From Kagunavirus 536P11, in sequence record OZ035764.1: a stretch of 44,422 nt of DNA. One strand, given 5' to 3'. Below are positions 4,585 through 37,111 of the stretch, piece after piece (position 1 is the stretch's first letter; every line of letters begins with the position of its first letter). The position numbers were made by a program, and so were the translations under genes. The notes below the pieces were generated by a model. The model searched no databases, was not told where the DNA came from, and saw only the letters and a list, made by a program, of their open reading frames with translations.

Positions 4585-5043
4585 ATGGGCTTTTTCAAAG
4601 TAACTGATGTGCTGTCACGTCGTGTAGTCCAGTACGCCCGCGTGTCTGGCTCTGGCGAGAACGTGGTATTTATCGAAGATGAAAGTGTACTGGGTACACC
4701 AGTAGACGATATGCCGTTTGCGGATAAAACCGGTATTGCGTTGCCAGCCGCGGGTATGCTTTATGAAATTCCGTATCTGGCTGACGCAGGCGACGTGTAC
4801 TTCTCGGCGCAACCGCAGGACGCTGAACTGGCGGACGGCAGCGCAACTATCACTGTCGAAGTTAAGGCGGGCAAAGCGCCGTATGCTCTTACCTGGTACA
4901 AAGACGGTAAGGAAGTTGTAAACGCACCTGAAGAGGCCTTGTCTCTGACGGTTAACGCAGCAGGTGAATACTTCGTTAAAGTCACCGATGCCGGTGGCGT
5001 AGAGGCCGTCAGTAAAGCGGCGAAGGTAACTAAGCCAGAATGA
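4585..5043 (+). CDS. Ig-like domain protein (possible capsid/virion decoration)
   Basis: 152 aa; C-terminal segment with PYALTWYKDGK Ig-like signature shared with ORF 8161-8511. Confidence 0.45.
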   Translation: MGFFKVTDVLSRRVVQYARVSGSGENVVFIEDESVLGTPVDDMPFADKTGIALPAAGMLYEIPYLADAGDVYFSAQPQDAELADGSATITVEVKAGKAPYALTWYKDGKEVVNAPEEALSLTVNAAGEYFVKVTDAGGVEAVSKAAKVTKPE

Positions 5044-5044
5044 T

Positions 5045-5069
5045 AAAAAGCCCCGTTAAGGGGCTTTTT
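5045..5069. terminator. intrinsic terminator (AAAAAGCCCC-GTTAA-GGGGCTTTTT)
   Basis: perfect GC stem flanked by A-run and T-run immediately after stop at 5043. Confidence 0.7.
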
Positions 5070-5133
5070 AGTGCCTGTGATTATTCCAGTTATTCCACTA
5101 AATTGTAAATGTTGGAATAAACTATTCGAATAG

Positions 5134-5162
5134 TTGACTTTTCACTGAAAATATGATAAGCT
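5134..5162 (+). promoter_or_regulatory. sigma70-like promoter TTGACT-17-TGaTAAGCT (extended -10)
   Basis: TTGACT 5134-5139, TG 5154-5155, TAAGCT 5157-5162; same architecture at 37080-37108; palindrome AACTATTCGAATAGTT (5120-5135) overlaps the -35. Confidence 0.5.
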
Positions 5163-5166
5163 CCAC

Positions 5167-5370
5167 CTGAGCTTGTGAAGTATGAACAAGCGACCGCGGC
5201 GCGGGCAGGTAACGGAGCGGGACGTAAGTCCTGAGTGTAGTTACGCTGACGCGTTCGGAAGGGCCATACTCTATTGCTTGTGTAAAAAGTAACTGGTTTA
5301 CTGAGATTACGCCGTTTCTATGTTTAAATGATAAGGACTAGCGCCCCGCTTTATGGCGGGGCTTTACTTA
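5167..5370 (+). ncRNA. candidate structured small RNA, copy A (boundaries approximate)
   Basis: no conserved ORF; blocks CTGAGCTTGTGA, CAAGCGACCGCGG and GAGTGTAGTTaCGCTGaCGCgTTCGGAAGGGCCA shared with 37112-37349; hairpins GCTTGT/ACAAGC and GGGAC-GUAA-GUCCU; ends in GCCCCGC/GCGGGGC hairpin plus T-tract. Confidence 0.4.
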
Positions 5371-10706: not shown

Positions 10707-11119
10707 TGGGCTACTTTGAGGACTTAACCAAAGCGTTTGATGTGCCGTTGGTAGCCTTCGGGAACGCAAACGGCATCAAGGTTGCGCTTGAAAACATCGA
10801 CGCGCCGACGTCAACCGATACGCCGTATCTGGCGAGTTACATGTTGCTGGCAGATACGGAACAGGCGGATTTGTTCTTCACCGAGCAACGCTCTGGTATC
10901 TATCAGGTCGACATTAACTACGCATCGGCGCAAGGTAGCGCGCCAATCAATAAAATGGCAGACTTACTTAACACGGCGTTTAAAGCAGGCAAGTCATTTT
11001 CACGTAACGACATCTGCGCCGAGGTTCAATCGGTTAGCCTGGGGCCGCTGATTGTAGAAAACGGATGGGCCAAAAGACCATTGTCAATTAACTTTATTGC
11101 ATTCACCAAGAGGCTGTGA
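10706..11119 (+). CDS. tail completion/terminator-like protein
   Basis: 137 aa ORF immediately upstream of major tail gene. Confidence 0.35.
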   Translation: MGYFEDLTKAFDVPLVAFGNANGIKVALENIDAPTSTDTPYLASYMLLADTEQADLFFTEQRSGIYQVDINYASAQGSAPINKMADLLNTAFKAGKSFSRNDICAEVQSVSLGPLIVENGWAKRPLSINFIAFTKRL

Positions 11120-12288
11120 ATATGACTACAACTCCTTTTAAGGGCGCGAATACCGCGCAATTCTATGTGGCGGAAGTTACCCCGGGCGTAACACCGGCTA
11201 ACCCTGTCTGGTCGCCGTTGCGTAACACTGGCGGTGTTCCTGCTATCACCCGCGACACGCTGACCTCCAACGAGCTGGACGGCAGCCGTGAAACTACATC
11301 CATCCGCACCGGTAACAAACAGGTTAGCGGTGAATACGCGATCGAGCTTAGCTCGAAAAGCCAGGACGACTGGCTGGCGGGTGCTTTAGGCGCTACGTGG
11401 CAATCAGGTGTTTCTCTGTCTGGGCTGTCGATTACCGTCGCACCAGCGGGTAAGACGTTCACACGCTCCACCGGCAGCTTTATTACCGACGGCGTTGAAG
11501 TGGGCGACCTGATTGCGTTTACCGACTTAACGGGGGATAACGCCAAACCGTTTATCGTAACCGCAGTAAATGCACTGGTAGTAACCGGGGCGGGTATCCA
11601 ACACACCCTGACCACCGAGAAAAAAACTAGTAAGGCTAAAACCGGCGACACGCTGGAAACCGGTAACACGTGTAAGACGTTCTCTATCCTTACCTGGTAC
11701 AAAGGCCAGTGCGGCGGTACTGACGCGTACACGTTAACCAAAGGCGTGGAAGTTTCTGGTTTTACCATCGAACAGGCTGTTAACGCGATGGTAACTGGCA
11801 GCTTCCCATTCATCGGTCGCAGTCAGGAGATTCTCACTACGCCGCCGACCGGTTCCAACTTCTCATCTGTTACTTTTGGTGATGAGCCGTTCTCTTCGGT
11901 TGACGTTTCCGTGTTCGATGGCTCTACGCCGTTGCGTTGTGATAGCCTTACCATCACCAACGACAACAGCGCGTCCGCGCAGTTCGAACTCGGCAATACT
12001 AATGTGGCGTTTGTGGAGCGTAGCCGCGCGGCTAACACCTTCTCCATCTCCGGCAAGCTGTACGACATGGCTATGATTCAGAAGTTTATCAACGAACAAC
12101 AGGTAGAGATTAACTCTATTCTGGCGGGGGTAAACGGGGCTATGTCTTTCAGTCTGAAACGTGCAGAACTCACGGCGGTTACGCCAGAGATTGGCGGGCC
12201 TGAGTCAATCACTCAGAGCATAGAAGGACAGTCCACAGGCAATCAATACCAATCTTCTATTGTAATACAGCGTATTAGCTACGCGTAA
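11116..12288 (+). CDS. major tail (tube) protein
   Basis: 390 aa ORF upstream of chaperone and tape measure; followed by terminator. Confidence 0.55.
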   Translation: MNMTTTPFKGANTAQFYVAEVTPGVTPANPVWSPLRNTGGVPAITRDTLTSNELDGSRETTSIRTGNKQVSGEYAIELSSKSQDDWLAGALGATWQSGVSLSGLSITVAPAGKTFTRSTGSFITDGVEVGDLIAFTDLTGDNAKPFIVTAVNALVVTGAGIQHTLTTEKKTSKAKTGDTLETGNTCKTFSILTWYKGQCGGTDAYTLTKGVEVSGFTIEQAVNAMVTGSFPFIGRSQEILTTPPTGSNFSSVTFGDEPFSSVDVSVFDGSTPLRCDSLTITNDNSASAQFELGNTNVAFVERSRAANTFSISGKLYDMAMIQKFINEQQVEINSILAGVNGAMSFSLKRAELTAVTPEIGGPESITQSIEGQSTGNQYQSSIVIQRISYA

Positions 12289-12292
12289 GGAA

Positions 12293-12312
12293 AAGGCCCC
12301 GAAAGGGGCCTT
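12293..12312. terminator. bidirectional terminator hairpin AAGGCCCC-GAAA-GGGGCCTT
   Basis: between convergent tail tube (+) and HNH (-) genes; U-tract on minus strand side. Confidence 0.6.
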
Positions 12313-12313
12313 A

Positions 12314-12808
12314 CTATTTACCGTGGTTCTCGTGGAACCCTAAATCTCTTTCAGCAACTCTCCTCGCAGCAACTGCATCTAGTAGCGTTTTAAAGCATCC
12401 GATGTGTGTTTTTACGTTATTGTTGAATATCTGTGCGTACCACAACCTTTCTTTCGCGTTCCAGTAAACCCCGGTTACTCCTGATTTATTATTACGCTGT
12501 TTTGACATATTTTTATGGTTTTCCGCATTGGACTTTTTAGCTAAGTTAAGCGGTCTATTGTTTATTCGGTTATGGTCTAGATGGTCTATTTGATCTGACG
12601 AGGTTAGCTTATCGTTAGGATTGTTTAAGTCCCAAGCTATACGGTGCGCCGCGTGCCATTTACCTCTGAAAAATATCCTTCTATATCCGTCTCGCTGTAC
12701 AGTACCTGCCTCCTCTCCAGCCTTAGCCCTCCCAGAACGTGTTACTCTGTTAAATATCCTTCCTGAAATTAAGTCGTATATGAAAAATTCATTCCAGTCC
12801 ATAATCAT
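12314..12808 (-). CDS. HNH-AP2 homing endonuclease-like protein
   Basis: HNH-like segment IDHLDHNRINNRPLNL and AP2-like segment GVTGVYWNAKERLWYAQI; start at MIMDW (RBS AGGAGA) preferred over track start 12940. Confidence 0.55.
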   Translation of the reverse strand: MIMDWNEFFIYDLISGRIFNRVTRSGRAKAGEEAGTVQRDGYRRIFFRGKWHAAHRIAWDLNNPNDKLTSSDQIDHLDHNRINNRPLNLAKKSNAENHKNMSKQRNNKSGVTGVYWNAKERLWYAQIFNNNVKTHIGCFKTLLDAVAARRVAERDLGFHENHGK

Positions 12809-12845
12809 CTCCTGTTGCGATAAGGCCCCTTTCGGGGCCTTTTTC

Positions 12846-13076
12846 TCACCCATCAATGTTACTTCGATACTCCCGTAACTTCTCCAGACTTTCAATTGCT
12901 TCGTTAAGGTCTGTATCAGCGTCCTTATGCCCTCTACCACCCATACATAACAGTTTCTTTAATGCGTGCTGTAGCGCGGGGTCGTTAATAACGAAGGCCC
13001 TTAGTACATCATAAACATCACATGTAATGGAATCGCCTGCGGTGTTGGTAAGTGTATGGTCGTATTTATTTGTCAC
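12846..13076 (-). CDS. hypothetical protein
   Basis: 76 aa ORF in minus-strand cassette. Confidence 0.4.
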   Translation of the reverse strand: MTNKYDHTLTNTAGDSITCDVYDVLRAFVINDPALQHALKKLLCMGGRGHKDADTDLNEAIESLEKLREYRSNIDG

Positions 13077-13266
13077 TGTTAACCCTCTTAAATCGGGCTA
13101 TGCCTGACTCGTTAATGTTGCCTATTTCAAAGAAGCTGCGATATTTAGGAGAATACATTCTTACGTCGCCATTCTCTAGGGTGATCCCTTCATATACAGC
13201 ACCTACTTCGAACCCATTTTTCTCCGCGTACGGACTCACATCGGTGCATTCATACATGTCTTTCAT
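13066..13266 (-). CDS. hypothetical protein
   Basis: 66 aa ORF in minus-strand cassette; ends overlap neighbours. Confidence 0.4.
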   Translation of the reverse strand: MKDMYECTDVSPYAEKNGFEVGAVYEGITLENGDVRMYSPKYRSFFEIGNINESGIARFKRVNSDK

Positions 13267-14393
13267 CTCAGCATCTCCGGTGAAATAGTTAAACGTGCGA
13301 CCTCGCCATATTCGGCACTATAAGTAATTACATTTGCACTACGGCCTGACATCCATCCGCCGCGGGAGGCGTAGGCGTCTTTAGCCGCTAAGGTGCGGTG
13401 TTGCTCAACAATCATGTTACGGCTTTCTACAATCTTCTGGTGGTGCAGGTGGCCTACGTGGGCGTAGCTGTAGACGCTCTCGCCGAAAGCCTTACGGAAT
13501 TTAGAAATCATTACTGACTCTATGGTATCAAATCTCGCACGGTGCCCATGGTGCATGAATAGTGTAGTTTTTCCATGCTGAACCATCTTGTATACGTCGG
13601 GGGAGGTGTCAACAAATACGCGAGGTTCGTTGTCATACAATGTGCAGAACATTTCGGCAAGCCATACGGAGCCGACAGGGTCGTGGTTACCTTGAACGAT
13701 TAAAAGTTTGACTGTGTGATGTTTAACAAGCGCCATATCAACAACACGGCGCACCATACGAATCATGTAGCGCACAAGTTTCTGATAACGCGTATCTGCG
13801 TCCAACACATGGCGTGACTCAGGGGTAACTGCATCCAGACTATCGAAGTGCGCGAAGTCCCCAAGCAGGTTAATAACCCCAGTTCCCGCGTCCGGTGCTT
13901 TCTGAAATGCAGCATCGAACCAGCGAGAAAACAGGTCTTCCGCAATCTTCATATCCCAGTCGTCTCCGCTCTCGTCTGCCCATGCCAGCATACCGAGATG
14001 AAAATCAGATACCGTGTAAAGATTGAGTAGTTTATCGTCACGTTTGGCCCGAGTCGCTTTAACAGGCGCTACCGGGGTAATCTCCGACTTCATACCCTCG
14101 ATTACGGCGTTCATCAACTCGACCTGACGTTCGGCATCTGTGTCGGTCTTAACCCATTGCAGTTTAGTGTTGCCGAACTCGTCCACAAGTGACGACGTTC
14201 CTTTAATCTTGTAGCCATCTGGTACAAGGTGGCTAACGTCGCGCCCGTGGCCTACGCCTTTCTTTGCCAGCTTCGCTTTACGGATACGAATTACACGGTC
14301 TGAGATGCCATATTTACGGGCTATATCGATAGTTTTAACTCCGGCGTTCAATTCTTCCTGTAACTGTTCGTCGGTTATTTTCTTCCGGGCCAT
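13263..14393 (-). CDS. HTH domain + calcineurin-like metallophosphoesterase
   Basis: N-terminal HTH-like segment (IDIARKYGISDRVIR); phosphoesterase motifs DFH, GDFAHFD, GNHD, HHGH, GHLHH; RBS GAGGAAG. Confidence 0.6.
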   Translation of the reverse strand: MARKKITDEQLQEELNAGVKTIDIARKYGISDRVIRIRKAKLAKKGVGHGRDVSHLVPDGYKIKGTSSLVDEFGNTKLQWVKTDTDAERQVELMNAVIEGMKSEITPVAPVKATRAKRDDKLLNLYTVSDFHLGMLAWADESGDDWDMKIAEDLFSRWFDAAFQKAPDAGTGVINLLGDFAHFDSLDAVTPESRHVLDADTRYQKLVRYMIRMVRRVVDMALVKHHTVKLLIVQGNHDPVGSVWLAEMFCTLYDNEPRVFVDTSPDVYKMVQHGKTTLFMHHGHRARFDTIESVMISKFRKAFGESVYSYAHVGHLHHQKIVESRNMIVEQHRTLAAKDAYASRGGWMSGRSANVITYSAEYGEVARLTISPEMLR

Positions 14394-14431
14394 GCTTACT
14401 TCCTCGTGTTTAGGATTTGTCCTATACTAGC

Positions 14432-14623
14432 TCACTTCTCGTTAACATTCGAGTTGCACGCCCAGATTAAAATAAATACCCACGGCAGCAGAACCCAACC
14501 AAGAAACAGATTAGCCATGAATATCGCCAACTTCGCTTTATGGTTGCGGAAATACGCAACCAGGAAAGGTGTGAAATAAGCGAGAAGTGCAAACAGAATT
14601 AAGGAAATTGGTAAACTTGACAT
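14432..14623 (-). CDS. small membrane protein, superinfection-immunity (Imm)-like
   Basis: 63 aa, two TM helices; FLGWVLLPWVFILIWA resembles Imm-family signature. Confidence 0.45.
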   Translation of the reverse strand: MSSLPISLILFALLAYFTPFLVAYFRNHKAKLAIFMANLFLGWVLLPWVFILIWACNSNVNEK

Positions 14624-14653
14624 TTTAAAACCCTCTATTGTTGGTGTAAGTGA

Positions 14654-14682
14654 ATAGTACGCTATTATATTGGGGTGCGCAA
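14654..14682 (-). promoter_or_regulatory. early promoter with operator (TTGCGC-17-TACTAT, core AATAG-N4-CTATT)
   Basis: minus strand reads CACCCCAATATAATAGCGTACTATTCACTTA, near-identical to 37391-37423. Confidence 0.55.
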
Positions 14683-14789
14683 GTAGTGTGTTAGAATAAT
14701 TTTGCGCCTAGTGTCGCACACGAAAAGCGGGTGGTTCCCGTCTGGCGCATTTCCTTTAACCAGTAACCTCTTAACCAAAGGATTAAAGA

Positions 14790-15206
14790 ATGAAACTTTC
14801 TGATTTTTATTTCGAAGACAAAGCGCTGGTAGGCAAGAAGATGCCGATTCTGCTGCCGAATGGCGAAGACTCCGGTGAGTGGCTTAACGTTGTAAATCCG
14901 GATGCGGACGCCGCCGTTAAAGCCGGGCGTGCTTTCATTATCGCGTACCGCCGCGGTCTGGCGCGTTTTGAAGAACTGGAAAAAGCTGCCAAAGAATCCG
15001 GCGACTATACTGAATATAACCTGGCGGTTAACGAACTGGCGGAAGACCTAAACCGGCAACTCGCGGCAGAAGTCGTAAACGGCTGGAGCTTTGACGAGCC
15101 ATTCTCTAAGGAAGCGTTTAACAAATTGCTCGATCAGTTCAAAGCATTAGGCACACAGGTAGCGGCGTTCCATAACGCTGAGCGCAAAGCATTACAGGAA
15201 AAGTAG
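14790..15206 (+). CDS. tail assembly chaperone (G-like)
   Basis: 138 aa ORF directly upstream of tape measure; -1 frame is open from 15182 through 15571. Confidence 0.6.
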   Translation: MKLSDFYFEDKALVGKKMPILLPNGEDSGEWLNVVNPDADAAVKAGRAFIIAYRRGLARFEELEKAAKESGDYTEYNLAVNELAEDLNRQLAAEVVNGWSFDEPFSKEAFNKLLDQFKALGTQVAAFHNAERKALQEK

Positions 15207-15571
15207 ACGCGCTGTACAGGTTCGCCACCTACGAGTTTGTGGATAAGCATAAAATCAGAGAGTTTGATTCTATAGCTGACGGACACGAACAGGCGCTTAT
15301 CGCGATGGGTGTAATCGATAAGAAAAAACGTGCAGCGCGACGGGGTGGGCCAGAATGCCCGCCCCTTTTTATATCCACCTTTGAGACGTATTGCGACATT
15401 AAGTTTACGCGACACGTGCGCGAGGACGCTGTAGTATTGTTTGCAAGAGAATCCGTTACGTGGCAAGACCTGAAAGCCTATCTCGATGTTACGCAAAAAC
15501 AGCTTAGCCTGTTCGAGATAGACATTATCATGGGCTTAGAAGCAATCTTTGAAGGTAGAAATCATGGCTGA
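15200..15571 (+). CDS. -1 frameshift extension of tail assembly chaperone (T-like)
   Basis: -1 frame open across G stop; GGAAAAG at 15197-15203 two codons before stop; track ORF 15239-15571 is the downstream part. Confidence 0.4.
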   Translation, partial: KVDALYRFATYEFVDKHKIREFDSIADGHEQALIAMGVIDKKKRAARRGGPECPPLFISTFETYCDIKFTRHVREDAVVLFARESVTWQDLKAYLDVTQKQLSLFEIDIIMGLEAIFEGRNHG

Positions 15572-17837
15572 TACCGCTAGCTTGATAGTACGAGTATCAT
15601 CGACCGGCGTCGATAAAACCACATCACAACTGAACGGGCTTACTAAGGCGGCTGGGGCCGCTGCTGCTGCCGTCGTCAGTCTGGAAACCGCTAAGCAGGT
15701 GTTCAGTGCGCTGGTGGACTCTCAGCGCAACTTCGATAAGCTTAACTCCGGACTCATCACAATGACCGGGAGCGCCGAGAACGCGGCAAAGGCTTTCAGC
15801 GTCCTGCAACAGTTTGCTAAAGAAACACCATATGGTCTTAACCAGGCTGTAGAGGGATTTACCAAGCTCGTGGCGCTCGGGCTTAACCCCAGCAAAGAGG
15901 CGTTAATCTCCTACGGCAACACTGCGGCTGCGATGGGTAAAGACCTTAACCAGATGATTGAGGCAGTTGCTGACGCCAGTACATTTGAATTCGAGCGCTT
16001 AAAAGAGTTTGGCATCAAGTCGTCACAGCAGGCTGATACTGTTTCGTTCACGTTCCGCGGTGTAACAACCACGGTTAAGAAGAACTCAGAAGAAATTCAG
16101 AAATACCTCCTTAACATCGGCAACACTGATTTCGCCGGAGCGATGGAGACTCGCTCGAAGACCCTTGACGGGCAGTTGTCGAGCCTTGCTGACTCCTTCG
16201 ATGGTCTTGTTCTTGCAGTAGCGCAGTCTGGTTTCGGTGATGCGGTAGGCGAACAAGCCGCAACAGCAGAAGATGCCATCACGGCGCTCACCGATGCCAT
16301 TGCGTCTAATGAGATAGCGGCCACACTCCAGGATTGGGCGACGCTGTTCAATGAGTCGTTCAAGTTTATTTCTGACGCCTTGAATGATTTGGCGTACGAC
16401 ACAGAAGAAAAATCGGCGAACATGTCAGATTCGCTTGGCACAATCCCTGACGCTATCCGTGAGTGGTTGCCTGACATTCAGCAGACATTCCACGAGGTTA
16501 TTGCATGGTTTCAGCGCATTGATGATTATGCCGTAGCGTTAGGCCAGACTCTTGCCGATGTGTTCGACCCAAGCAAAACGGCAGCACTAACATTTAAAAA
16601 CCTGACCGCGGAGGCCGACGCCGCATATGCCGCCAGCATAAAACGCGCTGAGGCAGAGTCACAGGCTATTACCGACCGGTCGAAACAGCGTAAAAAAGAA
16701 ATTGAGGAACAGCGCAAGCAGTATGACGAGCGCAAGAAGCAAGAAATTGACTTAGCCAGCCTTGTTAATAAAAAGGGTGGAACTGGCGGCACCGGAAACG
16801 CCGACGACAAAGCGACAAAAGCAGCCGCTAAGAAAGCAGAACAATTGCGGAATCAGGCGCAAGACTACCTCGACACTTTGGCCCGTCAGAACAATGACGA
16901 GTTAAAGGCTATTGACGCGCAGGAACAGCAGAAACTGGCTAAAGCGAAAGAGTTCTACAGTCAGGGTGCGCTATCGTTAAAAGAGTACGAACAGGCTAAA
17001 ACCGCAATTGTTCTTGAAGCAGGGCAAAAACGGCAGGATGAACTGGATAAACGCCAGAAGGAGGCCCAGGAAAAGCAACAGAAAGGTGATGATTTCATGG
17101 CTCAGATTATGGGCCAGAACGCCACCGAGCTCGAGCTTCTGGATATTCAGGAACAGCAGAAACTGGCGGTAGCCGATAAGTACAGGGAACAAGGTCTGAT
17201 TAGCGAGAAGCAGTATCAGGCAGCGCTTAACGCCATCAACGAGCAGTACGCGACCAAGCGAGCCGACGCAACGGCAACAGCTTTTGGCAACATGGCTTCT
17301 AACATCGGCTCCGCGTTAGGCGAAGCATCTGGCGCTTATAAAGCGTTCGCTATTGTACAGGCCACTATCGCTACGTACACCGCAGCTATTGAAGCGTATA
17401 AGTCAACGGCGGCTATCCCGGTTGTCGGACCGTTCCTTGCACCGGTAGCCGCTGCCGCTGCCGTTGGCGCAGGCATGGCGCAGGTTTCCGCTATCCGGTC
17501 TGCGCGTGAGCAGGGCGGTCAGTTGTCTGCGGGGCAGGCATCGACCATTGCCGAACGCGGTAAACCTGAGGTAATCATGCCGGCGGGGGCGTCGCGGGTA
17601 CGAACCGCGCAGCAGATGAAAGAGATTATGGGGCAAAACGGGTCTTCTTCCGGCCCATCTAATGTTACCATCGTAAACAACACGAGTTCGCAAATCGGCA
17701 ACGTGTCCACCGAGCAGGATGATGAAGGGCGTCTGCGCATCATCATCGAGGAACAGGTAGCCGCCTCTTTGCAGAATAGTAACAGTAAGATTAGCAAGGC
17801 CCGCAAGGCCACAAGAAACGCGCCGGGGTTCAAATAA
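15564..17837 (+). CDS. tape measure protein
   Basis: ~757 aa, A/Q/E/K-rich coiled coil with Gly/Ala-rich C-terminal part; ATG 15564 (RBS GAAGG) preferred over track start 15549. Confidence 0.75.
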   Translation: MADTASLIVRVSSTGVDKTTSQLNGLTKAAGAAAAAVVSLETAKQVFSALVDSQRNFDKLNSGLITMTGSAENAAKAFSVLQQFAKETPYGLNQAVEGFTKLVALGLNPSKEALISYGNTAAAMGKDLNQMIEAVADASTFEFERLKEFGIKSSQQADTVSFTFRGVTTTVKKNSEEIQKYLLNIGNTDFAGAMETRSKTLDGQLSSLADSFDGLVLAVAQSGFGDAVGEQAATAEDAITALTDAIASNEIAATLQDWATLFNESFKFISDALNDLAYDTEEKSANMSDSLGTIPDAIREWLPDIQQTFHEVIAWFQRIDDYAVALGQTLADVFDPSKTAALTFKNLTAEADAAYAASIKRAEAESQAITDRSKQRKKEIEEQRKQYDERKKQEIDLASLVNKKGGTGGTGNADDKATKAAAKKAEQLRNQAQDYLDTLARQNNDELKAIDAQEQQKLAKAKEFYSQGALSLKEYEQAKTAIVLEAGQKRQDELDKRQKEAQEKQQKGDDFMAQIMGQNATELELLDIQEQQKLAVADKYREQGLISEKQYQAALNAINEQYATKRADATATAFGNMASNIGSALGEASGAYKAFAIVQATIATYTAAIEAYKSTAAIPVVGPFLAPVAAAAAVGAGMAQVSAIRSAREQGGQLSAGQASTIAERGKPEVIMPAGASRVRTAQQMKEIMGQNGSSSGPSNVTIVNNTSSQIGNVSTEQDDEGRLRIIIEEQVAASLQNSNSKISKARKATRNAPGFK

Positions 17838-25250: not shown

Positions 25251-26671
25251 TTCTTACCTCGTCTCTTCATGTAATTAAGCAATTCTTCCTGGACCGATTT
25301 CTTCTCGTCAGTACGCGCGGCAACAACCTCGTCCAGCGTGTCTTTAGCAACGATGTGGTAAAGGAATACCGGGCGCTCGTGTCCCGCCTGTTTCTGGCGT
25401 ACCGGGCCTATACGCTCAACGACCTGCAAATAGTGCTCAAGGTTCCAGCCTTGTGAAATAAACGCCAGATGATGCCCACCGTCCTGTAAATTGAGGCCGT
25501 GGCCCGCTGACGCCGGATGTACGCATAAGATTTCGATTTCACCGCGGTTCCACGCTTCCATCTGCTTATTGCCCTTAGCACCTTTTGCAAACGCCTGGGC
25601 TTGAGGGAATCGCTTAAGGATACGTTCCAGTTCGTGCTTGAACTGATAGGCGACCAGTAGCGGTGCGCCCTGTAACTCCTCGACAATGGACTCAAGCGCA
25701 TCCAGTTTCGTATCGTGCACTTTCTCCCAGTCTTTGGTTGCTTCTCCGTCCGGCCCCGACACATACACGGCACCAGATGCAATCTGCAAACACTTCGACG
25801 TCTTCGCCGCTGCGTTAGCTGCTTCAACTTCTCCGCTCTCCAGTTCTGCAAATAGCTTCTCCTCCATATCTATGTACGCCTGACGCGCTTTCTTCGGCAG
25901 GTCGATTTCAACCGGTACGATAATCGGCGCTTCGCAACCGAACCACTCGGCAGCGTCAATCGTGAGACTGATGTCCTTCATCCTCTGATGAATCTCATTA
26001 TCCGCGCCCGGGCGTACCCGATACCTTCGCGCCATAGCCGATTTACCTTCCTGCACCGAGTTAAACCACCGGTCGGTGAACGCAGTGTATGAAGAACCGA
26101 GGCGCTCGCCAGCGTCGATAAACCAGTTCTGCCCCCACAAGTCCTTGAGGCCGTTAGGTGACGGCGTACCGGTCAGGTTGATAAAACGCTTAACCTTACC
26201 GAACGCAACTTTACTTAGCGCCTTTGCTCGCTTGCTTCCACCTGAACGGCTGCGGAATGATTTCAGCTTCGTGCTCTCATCGGCAACGATGACCGTAAAA
26301 GGCCAGTCGTCTTTGCCATAGTAGTCAATCAGCCACTCGATAACTTCGTAGTTGGTGCACACCACGTTAGCGTCCGACTCCAGCGCCGCGATGCGGCGCT
26401 TCTCTGAACCGGTTGCATCTACGACACTCAGGCACGGGAAACCCCACTTAGTTTGTTCTGCGGGCCACGTGCCGGACGCAACACGTAACGGGGCTAGGAT
26501 TAACACGCGGTCCTCTTCTGTAAGTTGCCCATTGCGAAACAGGCGGTTGAGTACCCACATCGTTGCGGAACTTTTGCCCGCACCCATCGAAGCCCAAATA
26601 TTACAGCGAGGGTGTTTCAACATGAACGAAGTCATTAGCTTCTGGTATTCACGCCTTTGAAACTTACTCAT
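25247..26671 (-). CDS. SNF2-family / DExx-box helicase
   Basis: Walker A GAGKSS, DEST box, helicase C-terminal-like region. Confidence 0.65.
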   Translation of the reverse strand: MSKFQRREYQKLMTSFMLKHPRCNIWASMGAGKSSATMWVLNRLFRNGQLTEEDRVLILAPLRVASGTWPAEQTKWGFPCLSVVDATGSEKRRIAALESDANVVCTNYEVIEWLIDYYGKDDWPFTVIVADESTKLKSFRSRSGGSKRAKALSKVAFGKVKRFINLTGTPSPNGLKDLWGQNWFIDAGERLGSSYTAFTDRWFNSVQEGKSAMARRYRVRPGADNEIHQRMKDISLTIDAAEWFGCEAPIIVPVEIDLPKKARQAYIDMEEKLFAELESGEVEAANAAAKTSKCLQIASGAVYVSGPDGEATKDWEKVHDTKLDALESIVEELQGAPLLVAYQFKHELERILKRFPQAQAFAKGAKGNKQMEAWNRGEIEILCVHPASAGHGLNLQDGGHHLAFISQGWNLEHYLQVVERIGPVRQKQAGHERPVFLYHIVAKDTLDEVVAARTDEKKSVQEELLNYMKRRGKK

Positions 26672-27617
26672 TTACCACCCCCATGAATGCCTTTATAAAT
26701 TCAGCGGCTACTTGCGGGATGATGGCATTGCCGTAACCGCGCAATCGTCCCACTCTGGCGGGTATCCCATTAGCCAGCGGGAATGTGCCGGGTTCAACTG
26801 GCCTGAATTTCCCATCCCGGCATCCGAGCCAGTCAGCATCTGACCAGAAGCTGTGGTGCGTATTGGCCGCGATATTTTCAGTCCCTGCTCCGTTGAGTAG
26901 TCCAGCCTGTCGAATGTTCTGTCTTTTCCGTCCTTGCGAATAACTGTCTCTCCGCTCCCTCTGTAATCGTTCGCTGTTGGGGTCGGCCATGCCAAAAGGT
27001 ATTGTGCGTGCGTCGCCAGATTGCAATTCGCATTCGGTCTGTTGAAGCGTTTTTCCGCGTAGGCTTGTGGGTCTTTCGCTCTGCTGTTGTTGTCGTCCGC
27101 AACCGCTGGCGTCGGCCAGGTTGTACGCGCCGAAGAACAGTCTGTCGCGTTTGTGCGGGGCACCGACGCTACAAGCTGGGAGTACGGCAAACCCGACGGA
27201 GTAGTCTTCTCCTTCCAGATGAGTTTGTAAATCGCACATCCACGATTTTGCAATTGCTGGTGCAACCTGTTCCCCAAAGAGGACTGGAGGGCGGCACTCG
27301 CTGATGAGGTCGAGGAAGACTGGCGCGAGGTGTCTCGGGTCAAACTGCCCGAGTTGCTTTCCTGCCGCGCTAAACGGTTGGCAAGGCGGGCTTCCCGTCC
27401 AGCAAGGCGTATCTTCCGAAACTCCCGCAAGTCTGAGCGCGAGAGGCCAGCCGCCGATACCAGCGAAAAAATGACACTGGGTGAACCCGTCAAGGTCTTC
27501 TGGCTTAACTTCGGTAATGCTTCTTTCATCTACAACTCCAAAAGGTATGTGACCCTGCTTTATTAATTCACGCAGCCACGCTGCCGCGCTTTTATCCCAT
27601 TCATTGTAGTAATTCAT
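26664..27617 (-). CDS. DNA (cytosine-5)-methyltransferase
   Basis: motif I FFAGIGG and motif IV GSPPCQPFSAAGK (catalytic PCQ). Confidence 0.8.
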   Translation of the reverse strand: MNYYNEWDKSAAAWLRELIKQGHIPFGVVDERSITEVKPEDLDGFTQCHFFAGIGGWPLALRLAGVSEDTPCWTGSPPCQPFSAAGKQLGQFDPRHLAPVFLDLISECRPPVLFGEQVAPAIAKSWMCDLQTHLEGEDYSVGFAVLPACSVGAPHKRDRLFFGAYNLADASGCGRQQQQSERPTSLRGKTLQQTECELQSGDARTIPFGMADPNSERLQRERRDSYSQGRKRQNIRQAGLLNGAGTENIAANTHHSFWSDADWLGCRDGKFRPVEPGTFPLANGIPARVGRLRGYGNAIIPQVAAEFIKAFMGVVNE

Positions 27618-27805
27618 TTCGCCACCAGAACTAACTCTTTACGCCCGAACGCCGTAACGTTACCGGTTACGTCTTCGATAACCAGTTTACCGTTCGACTC
27701 GACGAACACCGTATCAACGGCAACAGGACGACGGGTCTTAACGTTGAAAATCATGTCGCCCGGTACGATGTCACGTGCGGGTTTGCGGTCATATTCGTGT
27801 TTCAT
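27614..27805 (-). CDS. hypothetical protein
   Basis: 63 aa ORF downstream of internal promoter 27839-27867. Confidence 0.4.
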   Translation of the reverse strand: MKHEYDRKPARDIVPGDMIFNVKTRRPVAVDTVFVESNGKLVIEDVTGNVTAFGRKELVLVAK

Positions 27806-27835
27806 TTCTCAATTCCTTATATTGTTGGTGTAGGA

Positions 27836-28120
27836 CTAACTATAATAGTTCGCTATTAGGTCGTCAACCTGTTTAAACGAACCAACGACAAAAACATTTG
27901 CACCACGTTTACGCATCCGCTCATGCTCCCGTAACTGGTGCGGGTCAGGCTTCGTGTTCTCGTCTTTCTTCACCTCGACGAACCAGATGACGCCGCCGGG
28001 GAGAATTATCAGCAGGTCAGGAGCGCCCACTCTATTTTCGTACGACAATTTGCGTACAAGGCCCCCCAGGGCCTCGAATCGGTCTTTTGCGTATTTCTGA
28101 ATCTTGCCTTCCGGGGTCAT
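27836..28120 (-). CDS. VRR-NUC domain nuclease
   Basis: PD-(D/E)XK-like GAPDLL...VEVKK signature; ATG at 28120 (M6 of track ORF) overlaps stop of upstream micro-ORF. Confidence 0.6.
   Translation of the reverse strand: MTPEGKIQKYAKDRFEALGGLVRKLSYENRVGAPDLLIILPGGVIWFVEVKKDENTKPDPHQLREHERMRKRGANVFVVGSFKQVDDLIANYYS
27839..27867 (-). promoter_or_regulatory. early promoter with operator (minus strand TTGACG-17-TATAGT, core AATAG-N4-CTATT)
   Basis: plus strand TATAATAGTTCGCTATTAGG at 27841-27860; lies inside the 3' end of the VRR-NUC ORF. Confidence 0.5.
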
Positions 28121-28269
28121 GACCGCAGAACCCAAGTTATAAACGCCCCGCCGAGAACGGCAACGCCAACAAACTTAAAGAACAGGCCATAACAGAACAT
28201 CGCGGCTATCCCCGCACCGAGTAACAGTGCGAGCATGGTTACTATCGTCCAAAATACAAACATTGTCAT
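28117..28269 (-). CDS. small hydrophobic membrane protein (50 aa, not in ORF track)
   Basis: MTMFVFWTIVTMLALLLGAGIAAMFCYGLFFKFVGVAVLGGAFITWVLRS; ATGA overlaps at both ends. Confidence 0.4.
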   Translation of the reverse strand: MTMFVFWTIVTMLALLLGAGIAAMFCYGLFFKFVGVAVLGGAFITWVLRS

Positions 28270-28355
28270 AATACGCACCCCTCCCGTTTTGTATGCTCAA
28301 TGCCACAGCGCGGACAGATTCGGCAGTCTTCTTCGTAGAACCAGTAAATTTTCAT
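28266..28355 (-). CDS. micro-ORF, 29 aa CxxC peptide (not in ORF track)
   Basis: MKIYWFYEEDCRICPRCGIEHTKREGCVL; ATGA coupling to both neighbours. Confidence 0.3.
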   Translation of the reverse strand: MKIYWFYEEDCRICPRCGIEHTKREGCVL

Positions 28356-28504
28356 TCCAGCACCCACAGATAAATTGCGACTAACATACCCAATACGGCG
28401 ACTAACATACCCAATACGGCGACCATCATGCCGTATTGACCCTCGTGGCAGTAGACACCGGCGGTGAATCCCGCCAGTACTGCGATAATCAGTTTACTTA
28501 GCAT
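28352..28504 (-). CDS. small membrane protein with internal tandem repeat (50 aa, not in ORF track)
   Basis: RBS AGGAG 8 nt upstream; MLSKLIIAVLAGFTAGVYCHEGQYGMMVAVLGMLVAVLGMLVAIYLWVLE; overlaps 3' end of DNA polymerase gene. Confidence 0.4.
   Translation of the reverse strand: MLSKLIIAVLAGFTAGVYCHEGQYGMMVAVLGMLVAVLGMLVAIYLWVLE
28382..28423. repeat. perfect 21-bp tandem direct repeat x2 (TAACATACCCAATACGGCGAC)
   Basis: in-frame duplication giving VAVLGML twice in the small membrane ORF. Confidence 0.8.
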
Positions 28505-30695
28505 AGCGTTTTAACTCCTGCCCTTCCGCTACAAGAGGGAACCCCTCGGCCCACTCAGGCAGAGAACACATTAATTTTTCCAGTTCGGCCACCGTGTACT
28601 CAGGGGTATCTGGGGTTTCACATACCAGTTCATCGTGTACCGAAAGCACGATAGGATACCCGCCACGCTCAACGTTAATCATCGCATATGCCAGTAAATC
28701 ACGGCACAGCGCCTGGACAATGTTTTCACATGCTTTACCGCCGTGGGTGTATAGAGTTGTCCATTGGCGGGTTAACTGGTTTTCGCCCTGATACTTGATT
28801 CGGACATTCGTGTTTACCCGTCCATCTTCGTCTGTTTCCTTTGTCACACTAACGCCGATTCCCGGATACGAGAGGATACGGCCTGACGGCAACTCCATAC
28901 ACAACCACCAGCCAGGAACCTTCCTGCCCGACGAATCAAATTCTACGGTACGCCATATGCGGATAGCCCTTTCACCATTCCGGCGCAAGTGTGCCCCGGC
29001 CCAAAATTCACGACCAGGATTACGAACAGCGGCTAAAATTCCGTCTTTAAGGTCGCGCCAGAACGCTACTGTTTCCGGGTGTGACTCGCGCCACATACGC
29101 TTGATTGCATCACATGTGCGCCACACTTTCTTGTCCAGAATATATGATGGTCGGTCATCCTTTTCACCTGGATGCGGTGGTCGCTTGGCTTCCTGAATAC
29201 GCGCCCACTCATACCCACGTGCGGTAGCAGCCCAGATGTGGTCGGGGAAAGTCCCGTCCATTGTTTTTGCCATCTCAATAAGGTCAAGACCTAAGTTTTT
29301 AGCAAACGTAACGAACGCTCCGACGCCGCCCTCGTAGCCGAGACCCAGTTCGCATGCTTTGCCTATCTGTCTGATTTCCTTAAAGTTTTTCTTAATATCG
29401 TCGGGGTCCATGCCAAACATCTTACCTGCGGTTACACAGTAAATATCCAGTCCGGCACGGAACGTATCGAGCGCGGTTTCTTCTCCTGCTAACCACGCTA
29501 ACCCACGACCTTCGACGTTAGAGTAATCAGCTACGACAAACTTGTGCCCGGCTTCCGGTATGATGCAGCTACGGACCGTCGATGCCGTCAGCTTGGCTAC
29601 GTCAAATCGGCGGTGAGCACGACCCTTAAGTAACGCTGAAATGCCTTTATCCAGTTCATCATCGTGATAGTAACCGCGCGCCAGGTTCTGCGGCTGAAAG
29701 CCTTTACCCGCCCATCGCAGAGTGCGTTTTGCCCCGCCGTACTGCAAGCAACCACGACGGCGGTCGTCAGACGAGCGGCCCAACAGAAGCGGGTTATATT
29801 TCGTGGACGCTGTTGACGCGGCACCGAGGCGCATTTCGATAATCGTCCGGGCGTCGTCCGGTAAATCATCATCTGCCAACAGGTCGTTAAGCGTAGACTT
29901 CTGCGCGTTGTGAATACGGTGCGCAGGCGCAAGTTCACGCAGAATCGGCAGAAAGTCCTTACCCGTAAGCGAGCCTCCGTATTTGCGCTGGGCTTCTTCC
30001 TGTAACTGCGCTTTATGTTTCTCTACGGCATCAATAGCGGCTTCCGCCAGTGCGACGTCAACCTTAAACCCGCGGTCATTAATTAACTGGTCCAGTTCCA
30101 GTACGCGGTCCTCGAACTCGGAGTTACCCCAACGCGGCAGCTTATGGAAGACTTCACGCATCGCAGTGATGTCGCTCACGGCGTACTTGATGAACAGCGC
30201 CCACTCATCAGGGTGTGTTTCGGCGGTGTAGCGTCTGATTTTGTAGTTCTTCGGCGTCGGCTTAGAGAAACGCTGAATCAGCGCCTTGCCGCGTTTATCT
30301 TTCGCATTGTCAGCGGACACGCCCAGCACTTCGCACAACGCATCAAGTGACCCCGGCAGCGCGTGACGAAACGCCCAAATCATTGTATCAATGGTGTTGC
30401 TTACCGGAATATCAAAGTCCCAACAGTGCTTCATGATGAGCCTGTCGAACATTGATCCGTTGTGCCATACCATCTTAATGCGACTGTTTGGCTTAACCAG
30501 GCGGCGTAACGCACGATGCAAATCACCCGGCATGTCGCTGCCGTCGGTGCAATCCCACACCCGCACAGGCTCGTCGTCAAAAGCATAGGTACAGATAAGC
30601 ACTTCGGTTGACGGGTGTTCGGCGTAAGCGTAGGAACCGACTTTCTTTAAATCGGCTTCGGAGAATGTTTCAAAGTCCAGGTATAAGTAGCTCAT
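28494..30695 (-). CDS. DNA polymerase I-like (family A) with 3'-5' exonuclease domain
   Basis: exo motif LDFETF; pol motifs DYSNVEGR, RQIGKACELGLGYEGG, VHDELV; start at M19 (ATG 30695, RBS AAGGA) preferred over track start 30749. Confidence 0.8.
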   Translation of the reverse strand: MSYLYLDFETFSEADLKKVGSYAYAEHPSTEVLICTYAFDDEPVRVWDCTDGSDMPGDLHRALRRLVKPNSRIKMVWHNGSMFDRLIMKHCWDFDIPVSNTIDTMIWAFRHALPGSLDALCEVLGVSADNAKDKRGKALIQRFSKPTPKNYKIRRYTAETHPDEWALFIKYAVSDITAMREVFHKLPRWGNSEFEDRVLELDQLINDRGFKVDVALAEAAIDAVEKHKAQLQEEAQRKYGGSLTGKDFLPILRELAPAHRIHNAQKSTLNDLLADDDLPDDARTIIEMRLGAASTASTKYNPLLLGRSSDDRRRGCLQYGGAKRTLRWAGKGFQPQNLARGYYHDDELDKGISALLKGRAHRRFDVAKLTASTVRSCIIPEAGHKFVVADYSNVEGRGLAWLAGEETALDTFRAGLDIYCVTAGKMFGMDPDDIKKNFKEIRQIGKACELGLGYEGGVGAFVTFAKNLGLDLIEMAKTMDGTFPDHIWAATARGYEWARIQEAKRPPHPGEKDDRPSYILDKKVWRTCDAIKRMWRESHPETVAFWRDLKDGILAAVRNPGREFWAGAHLRRNGERAIRIWRTVEFDSSGRKVPGWWLCMELPSGRILSYPGIGVSVTKETDEDGRVNTNVRIKYQGENQLTRQWTTLYTHGGKACENIVQALCRDLLAYAMINVERGGYPIVLSVHDELVCETPDTPEYTVAELEKLMCSLPEWAEGFPLVAEGQELKRYAK

Positions 30696-30847
30696 TTCTT
30701 TTTCCTTAAATCCAGTGCCTTCGTTTCGCTTAATCGTATTTTCATACAATCACGGCAAATCCACACATGCCTGTACCCAGCCCGGTACTCATCTGCGTAC
30801 CAAGGAAGCGGTTTCATATAGCGGTATACGTGCTTACAGAAAATCAT
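30692..30847 (-). CDS. hypothetical small Cys-containing protein (51 aa, not in ORF track)
   Basis: stop TGA overlaps polymerase ATG (ATGA); MIFCKHVYRY...WICRDCMKIR; alternative is that the region is polymerase N-terminal extension. Confidence 0.3.
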   Translation of the reverse strand: MIFCKHVYRYMKPLPWYADEYRAGYRHVWICRDCMKIRLSETKALDLRKKK

Positions 30848-30861
30848 TATTTTGACCCTTA

Positions 30862-30886
30862 GTAAAAAGGCCCAATAAAGGGCCTT
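30862..30886 (-). terminator. terminator hairpin (AAGGCCC-AATAAA-GGGCCTT) with U-tract on minus strand
   Basis: directly after stop of 30906-31535 gene. Confidence 0.5.
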
Positions 30887-30905
30887 AATTAAACAGATTC
30901 AGATA

Positions 30906-31535
30906 TTAACCACGGCGGCGACGTTCGCGGCGCGGTGCTTCATCTTCTTCGTCGTCTTCCAGGTCATTGACACTGGCTGCAACTTTAGAACCGCCGAACG
31001 CTTTACCTTCGCCTACGTATTTAATTGCCAGCAGGTTAATACCGAGAACTTTGTACTTCTGGCTGAACCAGATTTCAACGCTTACGTTAGCGACGCAGCC
31101 GCTGTAAACCTGTTCACCTTCAATCTGCTCGCCGTCTACATTGAAGTCCTGCTCTACCTGAGTCTCGCCTTTTTTGGAGGTTACAATCAGTGGCTGTTTC
31201 TGAGCTTTCGCTTTGAAGTAGAAGCCTTCCGGGAAGTCTTCAAACGGATTGTCGCGCTCGGCAATGTCCTTAATAGCACATTTATCCATGTGCTTACCTT
31301 CGCCGTAGTTGGACTTCATCCATTTCTCGGCGGCGGCTGCACCTAACGCTTCTTCAACTACAGCGTAAACGGTGTCGTAGAGAGCGTCGATTTGAGCATG
31401 GTCAGACGGCAGGATAATAGTCGCGCTGTACTGGCCTTTAGTGATTGAGCCATCATCGTTTTCACGGTCTTTTTCGCGTTCAAATACGTTAACCCATGCA
31501 GTGTTTACTTTACGCAGATTTAATTTCAGTCCCAT
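30906..31535 (-). CDS. DUF2815-like protein (possible ssDNA-binding)
   Basis: 209 aa with acidic C-terminal tail; conserved neighbour of the nuclease and polymerase genes. Confidence 0.4.
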   Translation of the reverse strand: MGLKLNLRKVNTAWVNVFEREKDRENDDGSITKGQYSATIILPSDHAQIDALYDTVYAVVEEALGAAAAEKWMKSNYGEGKHMDKCAIKDIAERDNPFEDFPEGFYFKAKAQKQPLIVTSKKGETQVEQDFNVDGEQIEGEQVYSGCVANVSVEIWFSQKYKVLGINLLAIKYVGEGKAFGGSKVAASVNDLEDDEEDEAPRRERRRRG

Positions 31536-36516: not shown

Positions 36517-36807
36517 TTATCTTTTGGCCAGACATTCCATCAAATGCGCGTACTTACGGTAATAATCTACGACAATCTCATCGCCGAAATACTGATAAAT
36601 GTACGCTAAGTGGTCAGAGACACCGATGGAGGCCGACATTGTGCTGAGTCTTCGGAGACTAATCAACTGCAATTCTTCTGTAACGCAAAACGGTGAATAA
36701 GAGTCCAGCTTACAAGAAACGTTAAAGCACAACGCGTACTCGCCTTGCGCTAAATAAACCATATAAGCATTGTCGTTCTCTTTATCGTGGAAAATTACAC
36801 CTTTCAT
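36517..36807 (-). CDS. hypothetical protein
   Basis: 96 aa ORF. Confidence 0.4.
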   Translation of the reverse strand: MKGVIFHDKENDNAYMVYLAQGEYALCFNVSCKLDSYSPFCVTEELQLISLRRLSTMSASIGVSDHLAYIYQYFGDEIVVDYYRKYAHLMECLAKR

Positions 36808-37108: not shown

Positions 37109-37111
37109 TCA

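Follow-up and report, generated by a model that had tools for sequence, protein, structure and literature searches.

The 44,422-nt sequence of Kagunavirus 536P11 (OZ035764.1), referred to here as the window, contains five minus-strand genes inside a tail module that otherwise runs rightward. We consider it probable that this cassette is a conserved leftward 'island' of the subfamily Guernseyvirinae: a single operon, placed between the tail-tube and tail-chaperone genes, that is expressed with the early and replication genes rather than with the late genes. Its constant element is a gene for a 376-aa protein that joins a helix-turn-helix (HTH) domain to a metallophosphoesterase (MPE) domain; the remaining genes include an Imm-family membrane protein, two small open reading frames (ORFs) and an HNH endonuclease. 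From the promoter to the terminator, the cassette comprises the following features:

14654-14682, minus strand: cassette promoter, with -35 TTGCGC at 14682-14677, a 17-nt spacer and -10 TACTAT at 14659-14654
14653-14666, no strand assigned: palindrome AATAG-TACG-CTATT, a presumed operator, overlapping the cassette -10
14432-14623, minus strand: first gene of the operon and a swappable slot, here encoding a 63-aa protein of the Imm (T4 superinfection immunity) family (PF14373, phrog_1039)
13263-14393, minus strand: 376-aa HTH-MPE, the invariant core of the cassette, with the HTH at residues ~8-44, a beta-hairpin/helix linker at ~57-105 and a binuclear metallophosphoesterase domain
13066-13266, minus strand: 66-aa ORF whose start overlaps the MPE stop (ATGA), a Kagunavirus-restricted orphan
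12846-13076, minus strand: 76-aa ORF with a GTG start, a widespread small phage protein (phrog_2452, 1.7e-33)
12822-12841, no strand assigned: the terminator hairpin again, as an inverted second copy that separates the 76-aa ORF from the HNH gene, followed on the plus strand by UUUUUCUC
12314-12802, minus strand: free-standing HNH_3 endonuclease gene, 162 aa, with an alternative ATG at 12808
12293-12312, no strand assigned: GC-rich hairpin AAGGCCCC-GAAA-GGGGCCTT, common to the tail-tube gene and the cassette, followed on the minus strand by UUUUCCUU

A megablast search with positions 11000-16000 of the window retrieves 464 phage records, of which the best matches are E. coli siphophages (K1G, K1ind1-3, Ro145clw, KMB36, and the BASEL phage Bas74; 87-91% identity), followed by Salmonella Jerseyviruses. 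The window has the same layout as Bas74, a fully annotated relative in which the packaging, head, and tail genes run rightward over the first ~24 kb, the replication genes run leftward from ~24 to 37 kb, and the rightward direction resumes at ~37 kb with small early genes and lysis genes. The cassette is flanked by the tail-tube gene (PF18906, 3e-40; stop codon at 12286-12288) and by the genes for two tail assembly chaperones. For comparison, 72 metagenomic viral loci were fetched around relatives of the MPE and typed, together with GenBank phages, by tblastn. The conservation counts given below cover all typed loci that have tail genes, namely 47 loci from several genera, including loci whose tail proteins are only 50-70% identical. 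Searches of the literature on Guernseyvirinae, Jerseyvirinae, Kagunavirus, BASEL, and CM001 returned annotations only, and a functional study of the cassette was not found.

The five minus-strand genes listed in a preliminary description of the window are confirmed at their coordinates, each with a Shine-Dalgarno-like sequence ahead of it, and the proposal that they are transcribed as one unit, against the direction of their surroundings, from a promoter and to a terminator of their own is upheld. Comparison among relatives for presence or absence of the unit finds the operon at the same site in 47/47 loci, always with the MPE. The arrangement is constant: the tail chaperone gene points one way; then come the promoter, the first gene, the MPE gene, and variable genes; and after the terminator the tail-tube gene points back. 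Variation is confined to the two ends of the operon (the first gene and the distal genes), and the MPE is invariant. GC content in the cassette region is 0.45-0.48 vs ~0.53 in the flanks. The cassette had been described as an acquired unit; because every Guernseyvirinae locus examined has the operon at exactly this site with the MPE, the insertion predates the subfamily, and the operon, judged by these sequence comparisons, is a fixed subfamily feature with an invariant enzyme and swappable ends rather than a recent acquisition. The preliminary description had also considered that the genes might occur in all relatives as essential morphogenesis genes. They do occur in all relatives, but they do not look like morphogenesis genes, as none of the five cassette proteins matches a structural family in Pfam or PHROGs. 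A search of the cassette proteins against NCBIfam returned nothing, and PADLOC returned nothing defence-related.

Inverted genes also occur elsewhere in the structural modules of these phages. Bas74 (locus L009) has a second small reverse-strand gene in its head module (4908-5111), with AATAG-N4-CTATT at 5138, which is the same promoter class as that of the tail-module cassette, and the Jerseyvirus vB_SenS-Ent1 (hereafter Ent1) has an inverted amidase gene after its portal gene. Inverted islands in the structural module thus seem to be a habit of the subfamily.

The association of the cassette with the early and replication genes is drawn from its promoter. The cassette promoter shares a palindrome with the early and replication promoters, as had been noticed in the preliminary description, and the same holds in the genus Jerseyvirus, where Ent1 has four palindromes, one of them at the cassette promoter. 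The palindrome AATAG-N4-CTATT occurs six times in the window, and every copy is promoter-like and upstream of an early or replication gene cluster; among palindromes of the form 5-N4-5, that with AATAG is the most over-represented (six copies in the window, seven in Bas74, four in Ent1). An extended motif, GTGAATAGnnnnCTATTATA, has five matches in the window at no more than two mismatches, vs 0.01 expected. According to a repeat finder, positions 14647-14683 are complementary to 37388-37424, at the start of the rightward early genes, at 34/37 positions (92%).

Two promoter classes carry the palindrome in the window. Three copies have the form TTGCRC-N10-palindrome, with the -10 TACTAT over the right arm; these are at the cassette (minus strand), at 37.4 kb (plus strand), and at 38.8 kb (plus strand). 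In three further copies the palindrome occupies the spacer (TTGACA-N4-palindrome-ATAGT); they are on the minus strand at 27.85, 31.6, and 33.87 kb, and precede the methylase/helicase, single-stranded DNA-binding protein/polymerase, and exonuclease clusters, respectively. Bas74 has the same palindrome at its cassette promoter and at its replication and early promoters. In Ent1, which belongs to another genus and infects another host, the copy at the cassette promoter is in another register (TTGCAT-N7-palindrome). At the cassette site there is one palindrome per locus in Kagunavirus and Jerseyvirus and none in Dhillonvirus, and in the Kagunavirus loci with a recognisable tail assembly chaperone (TAC) gene the cassette promoter lies at a constant distance from the start of that gene. 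A palindrome that is kept while its register to the -35 and -10 shifts from one promoter class or genus to another is more in keeping with a protein-binding site in its own right than with an element of the promoter, and we infer from these patterns that it acts as an operator. The promoter and terminator rest on comparative evidence, because a scan of the window for consensus promoters and terminators missed both, and the sites that it reported were no more numerous than in shuffled sequences.

The first leftward early gene of the window (36804-36974, minus strand) encodes a 56-aa HTH_17 protein of the Xis/MerR/AlpA type (E = 3.2e-10). This Xis/AlpA-like protein is a candidate for the regulator that binds the palindrome. 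In the transcriptome of Kagunavirus K1B4, the sole annotated early gene encodes an HTH protein (PMC12645636). The same RNA-seq study places the Imm gene in the temporal class of the DNA polymerase and methylases, and assigns the adjoining tail genes, the chaperone gene included, to a different class (PMC12645636).

Over its full length, the MPE matches PHROG 704 ('DNA repair exonuclease'; 1.7e-162), and it carries all five metal-binding motifs of the superfamily (DxH, GD, GNH[D/E], H, and GHxH). Residues D130, H132, G178, D179, N236, H237, H282, G314, and H317 are invariant in 75 homologues that share 32-49% identity, and H315 is conserved in at least 90% of them. In its AlphaFold model (pLDDT 93), a three-helix N-terminal domain and a beta-hairpin/helix linker precede the MPE domain, which has the four-layer alpha/beta sandwich fold; its nearest structural matches are enzymes, nuclease MPEs among them (DP1/Mre11/SbcD). 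The protein is predicted to be an active enzyme because the metal-binding residues are invariant, and sequence and model together identify it as a predicted binuclear phosphodiesterase of the nuclease-like (DP1/Mre11/SbcD) branch. The best reading of the sequence evidence is that of a putative DNA-end nuclease or phosphodiesterase of DNA metabolism.

The HTH-MPE family extends far beyond the subfamily. Of 50,697 phage records, 2007 contain a member, which is full length in 1955, and the family forms 4486 clusters at 50% identity, mostly of ~375-400 aa and aligned from near the N-terminus. In Dhillonvirus, the MPE gene lies between the lysis and terminase genes, with no Imm neighbour. In a T1-like phage (Drexlerviridae), it is among small genes downstream of a helicase and a nuclease gene, beside a holin gene, and again without Imm. 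In the Erwinia podophage Era103, which also lacks Imm at this locus, it lies between endonuclease VII and a phosphatase/kinase pair that is followed by DNA ligase, with an exonuclease nearby. The MPE is therefore not a dedicated partner of Imm, since the family occurs without Imm elsewhere, including in the DNA-metabolism module of Era103. The proposal of an Imm-like protein plus an enzymatic partner is accordingly not supported, as within the Guernseyvirinae themselves Imm is swapped and the MPE kept. The very large size of the family (~4,500 clusters, ~2,000 GenBank phages) and the constant presence of the MPE argue for an important role; literature searches found no functional study of the HTH-MPE family.

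The first gene does encode an Imm-like protein, as the preliminary description proposed. It matches PF14373 at 48 bits vs a cut-off of 27.9 (E = 1.2e-12; profile positions 2-42 of 42) and phrog_1039, 'immunity to superinfection' (6e-22). Reading of the sequence, made without a transmembrane predictor, gives two hydrophobic stretches (~4-24 and ~31-54) with a basic loop, RNHKAK, between them. Independent annotation of a Jerseyvirus also arrived at Imm (PMC9409062). Among relatives, the first-gene slot is occupied by the Imm family (three alleles), by a ~108-aa signal-peptide protein unrelated to Imm, or by another membrane protein. The signal-peptide protein (MRKLVLALGFMSFATFGSPCEQ...), for which there is no Pfam match, replaces Imm in loci L013, L016, L019, L022, L024, L034, L037, L038, L041, L046, and L048, and more divergent secreted proteins stand at the first-gene position in L043-L045 and L077. 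The secreted alleles are presumably alternative exclusion proteins. Across loci L001-L064, the first-gene allele tracks the adjacent tail chaperone/tape measure allele (identity classes of ~95% vs ~52-56%), with exceptions at L012 and L063. This association was considered as a sign of cognate exclusion, with each exclusion protein suited to the tape measure that it blocks, and was set aside: it is strong, but exceptions exist and the genes are 170 bp apart, so linkage would explain it.

The distal end of the operon is the second swappable slot, with 19 architectures in the 47 loci. A HAD phosphatase and a P-loop kinase are present in 17 loci, and the 76-aa ORF alone in eight; other types have the 76-aa ORF with a Rha/KilAC protein, one of three different HNH genes, or small membrane proteins, and in some no distal gene is recognisable. 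The HAD protein of relatives is a PNKP-type 3'-phosphatase (PF25109, 6.7e-20). The window is without both this 3'-phosphatase and the P-loop 5'-kinase, the corresponding genes of K1ind2 being replaced by 12313-13255, and its own distal combination (66-aa ORF, 76-aa ORF, and HNH) recurs only in KMB36 and two metagenomic contigs. The 66-aa ORF is present in 25 phage records, all of them Kagunavirus and at no less than 94% identity, and has no match in PHROG, Pfam, or NCBIfam; Ro145clw has a second HNH gene in its place. The 76-aa ORF is found by tblastn in 770 phage records, from Guernseyvirinae and beyond, and in 27/47 of the related loci, and has no Pfam or NCBIfam match. Its PHROG matches to the C-terminus of longer profiles raised the possibility of an ATPase-gene remnant, which was rejected: the ORF is intact and widespread, and has no similarity to the P-loop protein of K1ind2.

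At the downstream boundary, the bidirectional terminator hairpin proposed at 12293-12312 is well supported. It has an 8-bp stem with folding energies of -20.4 kcal/mol (minus strand) and -22.8 kcal/mol (plus strand), corresponding to z = -3.6 and -4.6, and 0/200 shuffles were as good. The consensus scanner did not call it, likely because (by eye) no more than 4 T remain for the tail once all 8 bp of the stem are formed; the GenBank record of Ent1 has terminators on both strands at the same site. The second hairpin copy (-18.8 and -17.1 kcal/mol) is part of an inverted repeat, I2, that matches 12285-12313 to 12821-12849 (29 nt, 93%). On the minus strand this copy has no U-tract (UUAUCGC), whereas the downstream copy keeps its U-tract. 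Because the upstream hairpin has lost its U-tract on the cassette strand, read-through into the HNH gene is plausible.

The HNH gene itself has a better start at ATG 12802 (GGAG 7 nt upstream), which gives the 162-aa product annotated in Ro145clw. Its designation as an 'HNH-AP2' endonuclease stands for HNH_3 (26.3 bits vs a cut-off of 24.8); the AP2 match is only suggestive (E = 0.022, 15.5 bits vs 33.3, an isolated C-terminus). The protein also matches phrog_99 (6.7e-50) and the PADLOC 'homing endonuclease' model (0.0011). Compared with DUEC01, L021, L029, L031, and L035, the window has an additional segment at 12313-12842; loci L004, L009, L021, L029, L031, and L035 are without the insertion and have a single hairpin between the 76-aa ORF and the tail-tube gene. 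Copies of the HNH gene at 95% identity or above are limited to four of the 50,697 phage records (three phages) and 4/47 loci, and the next relatives, at no more than 47% identity, are located elsewhere in these genomes. Among carriers the HNH protein is 98-100% identical, and the neighbouring 76-aa ORF 79-82%. An insertion that is sporadic, sits at one precise position, and is matched by an intact empty site in close relatives shows the pattern of a homing endonuclease. These comparisons fit a recently spreading homing endonuclease gene that would have inserted into the terminator and duplicated it. Ent1 (L082) has inteins in its helicase and DNA polymerase genes (25253-31410), one with a LAGLIDADG homing endonuclease, as well as free-standing HNH genes, underlining that selfish endonucleases heavily colonise these phages.

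From these elements, the following course of events can be proposed for the favoured reading. Host sigma-70 RNA polymerase would start at 14654-14682, and a phage regulator would bind the palindrome over the cassette -10, which also marks the replication and rightward early promoters; a regulator that binds the shared palindrome would switch all of these promoters together. Transcription would pass through the five genes and end at the 12293-12312 hairpin, which would also end tail-tube transcription arriving from the other side. The Imm-family protein, by analogy with T4 Imm, would most likely act in the inner membrane to block entry of superinfecting phage DNA. The HTH-MPE would most likely process DNA ends or degrade DNA during replication or host takeover, independently of Imm. 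The two small ORFs may be accessory genes, and the HNH protein a selfish homing endonuclease, expressed by read-through of the crippled upstream hairpin copy.

Four observations weigh against this reading. The K1B4 study labels the class that contains Imm 'late', with a peak after 100 min (PMC12645636). The Dhillonvirus MPE gene shares its strand with the lysis and terminase genes, and its timing may differ between families. The MPE falls below the Pfam cut-offs for both Metallophos (23.0 vs 27) and Metallophos_2 (19.1 vs 21.5). Searches of the PDB with the MPE found nothing by sequence, and only non-significant matches to SbcD and GerE by profile. As the time points of the K1B4 study span several infection cycles, we take its data to support co-regulation of the cassette with the replication genes, not early timing. 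The class of the MPE is decided by structure and motifs, because the family is too divergent for the Pfam models.

Among the alternatives, a role of the MPE in polynucleotide end-healing, as the nuclease or phosphodiesterase arm of a system that mends phage DNA or host tRNA after cleavage by nucleases of the host and that has lost its kinase and phosphatase arms here, is doubtful but has the most behind it. In 17/47 relatives, the MPE gene is followed by the PNKP-type 3'-phosphatase and P-loop kinase genes, the same trio precedes an ATP-dependent DNA ligase in Era103, and an MPE-phosphatase pair is present in L068; adjacency in three separate lineages suggests a functional link. However, the kinase and phosphatase are absent from the window and from most relatives that are not of the K1 type, so the MPE must have a function independent of them. 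There is no ligase in or beside the cassette, and the linkage could reflect the hot-spot nature of the site, with its 19 architectures. Less likely again is the recent acquisition of a two-component unit whose members, Imm and the MPE, cooperate in superinfection exclusion or counter-defence. The two genes are adjacent, co-transcribed, and oriented against the tail module, the GC content of the cassette is below that of its flanks, and a mycobacteriophage MPE with a counter-defence role exists (PMC12287305). Such a unit is hard to reconcile with an operon fixed at one site in all 47 relatives and several genera, with the exchange of Imm for unrelated envelope proteins while the MPE is kept, and with the occurrence of the MPE family without Imm in Dhillonvirus, Drexlerviridae, and Era103; there is also no PADLOC hit.

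The possibility that the HTH of the MPE itself binds AATAG-N4-CTATT, so that the cassette would regulate itself and the MPE would be a master regulator of the early promoters, is very improbable. The protein has a confident N-terminal three-helix HTH with weak similarity to the LuxR/GerE type (E 0.03-0.11), and it is transcribed from a palindrome-bearing promoter. Yet Dhillonvirus slur05, which encodes a very similar HTH (KITDEQL...IAKKYGI...), has zero occurrences of AATAG-N(2-8)-CTATT in 43.9 kb, and the palindrome is in none of the non-Guernseyvirinae MPE loci. The motif thus does not travel with the HTH-MPE, and the MPE was rejected as the operator-binding protein on the slur05 evidence. 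The least credible alternative is that the cassette genes are inverted tail-morphogenesis factors, for which their position inside the tail module and their presence in every relative would speak. Against this stand the lack of any structural-family match, the early-class promoter, and a gene content that is highly variable except for the MPE; the MPE, the only cassette protein that was folded, is nearest to enzymes, and in other phage families it lies outside the structural modules.

Two further features adjoin the cassette promoter on the side of the tail-chaperone gene:

14701-14765, plus strand: int-alpA RNA (RF02996), in the leader of the tail-chaperone gene (ATG 14790), adjoining the cassette but outside it
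14669-14697, plus strand: candidate divergent promoter of the tail-chaperone/tape-measure operon, with -10 TAGAAT at 14692-14697 and a weak -35 TTGGGG at 14670-14675, read from the sequence

The RF02996 match scores 36.6 bits vs a gathering threshold of 35.8 (E = 4.7e-4), and is the only above-gathering Rfam match and the sole copy in the window. At the gathering threshold, Rfam has no match in eight related loci and genomes, where the motif is present below threshold only; RF02996 is the top, sub-threshold family at the same site in Bas74 (27.8 bits) and Ent1 (26.2 bits). In an alignment of 16 sequences from several genera, 94.2% of the cells are paired and 4/14 pairs are compensatory (slid controls, 34-55%), and the G-U intermediates fit the plus strand only. 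A -10-like hexamer (TAGAAT, TATTCT, or TAAACT) is found 6 nt before the RNA motif in all genera. The two promoters interdigitate, because the rightward -35 falls in the spacer of the cassette promoter, and vice versa. We infer from this arrangement that the transcript headed by the RNA begins with this structure, from the candidate divergent promoter; the palindrome is then ~43-45 bp upstream of the presumed rightward start. The leader had no blastn match in 5,426 E. coli genomes. Eleven betaproteobacterial matches were found, and in those inspected the motif lies (by eye) downstream of an integrase-like ORF of ~430-470 aa, the size of a tyrosine integrase, and just ahead of another ORF.

As a tentative proposal, which we hold to be rather unlikely as it stands, positions 14647-14790 may constitute a compact bidirectional temporal switch. 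One regulator, for example the HTH_17 early protein, would turn off promoters of the early class and activate the tail genes downstream, and the late transcript would be subject to cis action of its leader RNA, through antitermination or translation control for instance. If true, this would provide the first concrete functional setting for the orphan int-alpA RNA family, and would explain re-initiation of a tail operon that is split by an inverted island.

Other elements were noted elsewhere in the window. An element of ~150 nt occurs twice, at 5126-5290 and 37081-37230 (both plus strand), with a 45-nt core that is 89% identical (repeat D4). Both copies start with TTGACT-N17-(TG)-TAAGCT, which is strongly promoter-like, and have no convincing ORF; one lies in an intergenic region of the head module, and the other just upstream of the 37.39 kb early promoter. 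There is no Rfam match for this element, which may be a duplicated small RNA gene. The rightward early region also contains paralogous DUF551 genes at 38086-38298 and 38449-38640 (both plus strand; Pfam 2.8e-5 and 2.4e-16), which share repeat D10 (84% over 37 nt).

Hundreds of Guernseyvirinae genomes already have the cassette genes annotated, and the description of the island changes little in that respect. What the analysis adds is a defined hot spot, with two swap slots around an invariant enzyme, and thus a place where insertions are naturally tolerated and where therapy phages of Kagunavirus and Jerseyvirus could be engineered. Through the palindrome, temporal control can be put to the test in a group of phages that, in our searches, was represented by a single RNA-seq study of low resolution. 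The int-alpA-like leader represents a new context for an orphan RNA family.

The closest counterparts of the cassette are the reverse-strand blocks of K1G, K1ind1-3, SETP3, Ent1, and Bas74, which have the same site and orientation. These blocks share with the window Imm and the 376-aa MPE (55-96% identity), the promoter palindrome, and the terminator hairpin. Their distal content differs: K1ind2 has the P-loop kinase and HAD phosphatase, Ent1 another HNH gene and a Rha/KilAC 'anti-repressor', and Bas74 only the 76-aa ORF. Morons of lambdoid phages (e.g., HK97 gp15) are autonomous promoter-gene-terminator units inside late operons. The window unit resembles them in having its own promoter and terminator hairpin, on the opposite strand, within a structural module, and in encoding membrane proteins presumably aimed at superinfection. 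Unlike morons, it is inverted, multi-gene, equipped with a core enzyme, and linked through its promoter to the early class of a virulent phage; and rather than being present in some close relatives and absent in others, the whole unit is fixed across the subfamily.

The Imm-family protein is like T4 Imm in being small, with two hydrophobic helices and a predicted inner-membrane location, in matching the Pfam family above threshold, and in belonging to a virulent phage. It differs in length (63 aa vs 83 aa, the T4 figure quoted in PMC9409062) and in being one of several interchangeable envelope-protein alleles. The leader RNA is like RF02996 in its three-helix architecture, in its conserved CUAG, CGAAAAGCGGG, and CCCGcCUGGCGC blocks, and in its position just ahead of an ORF; unlike the bacterial copies downstream of an integrase-like ORF, it heads the tail-chaperone/tape-measure operon of a virulent enterobacterial siphophage, and it does not lie between the integrase and alpA genes of an integrative element.

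For the MPE, the nearest parallel outside the subfamily is Era103 gp26-gp28 (MPE, polynucleotide kinase/phosphatase, and P-loop protein), whose MPE belongs to the same HTH-MPE family (48% identity over the full length). This is the trio of the K1-type Kagunaviruses; the window is without the kinase and phosphatase, and in Era103 the block is part of a podophage DNA-metabolism module, shares its strand with its neighbours, and has no Imm. Archaeal PolD DP1 and Mre11/SbcD are 12-17% identical to the MPE and have no counterpart of its N-terminal HTH and beta-hairpin linker. The likeness to Mre11/SbcD nucleases is not exclusive, as non-nuclease MPEs score almost as well (LpxH, 13.7), and the cassette contains no gene for a Rad50/SbcC-type ATPase; relatives have only the 184-aa P-loop kinase-like protein. 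Gp48 of mycobacteriophage A10ZJ24, an early MPE, inflicts damage on host DNA and weakens defence (PMC12287305). Like the window protein, Gp48 is a phage-encoded MPE with all five motifs, and it is reported to be expressed early and required on some hosts (PMC12287305); it comes from another host and phage lineage, has no reported HTH fusion, and is comparable with the window protein at the superfamily level only.

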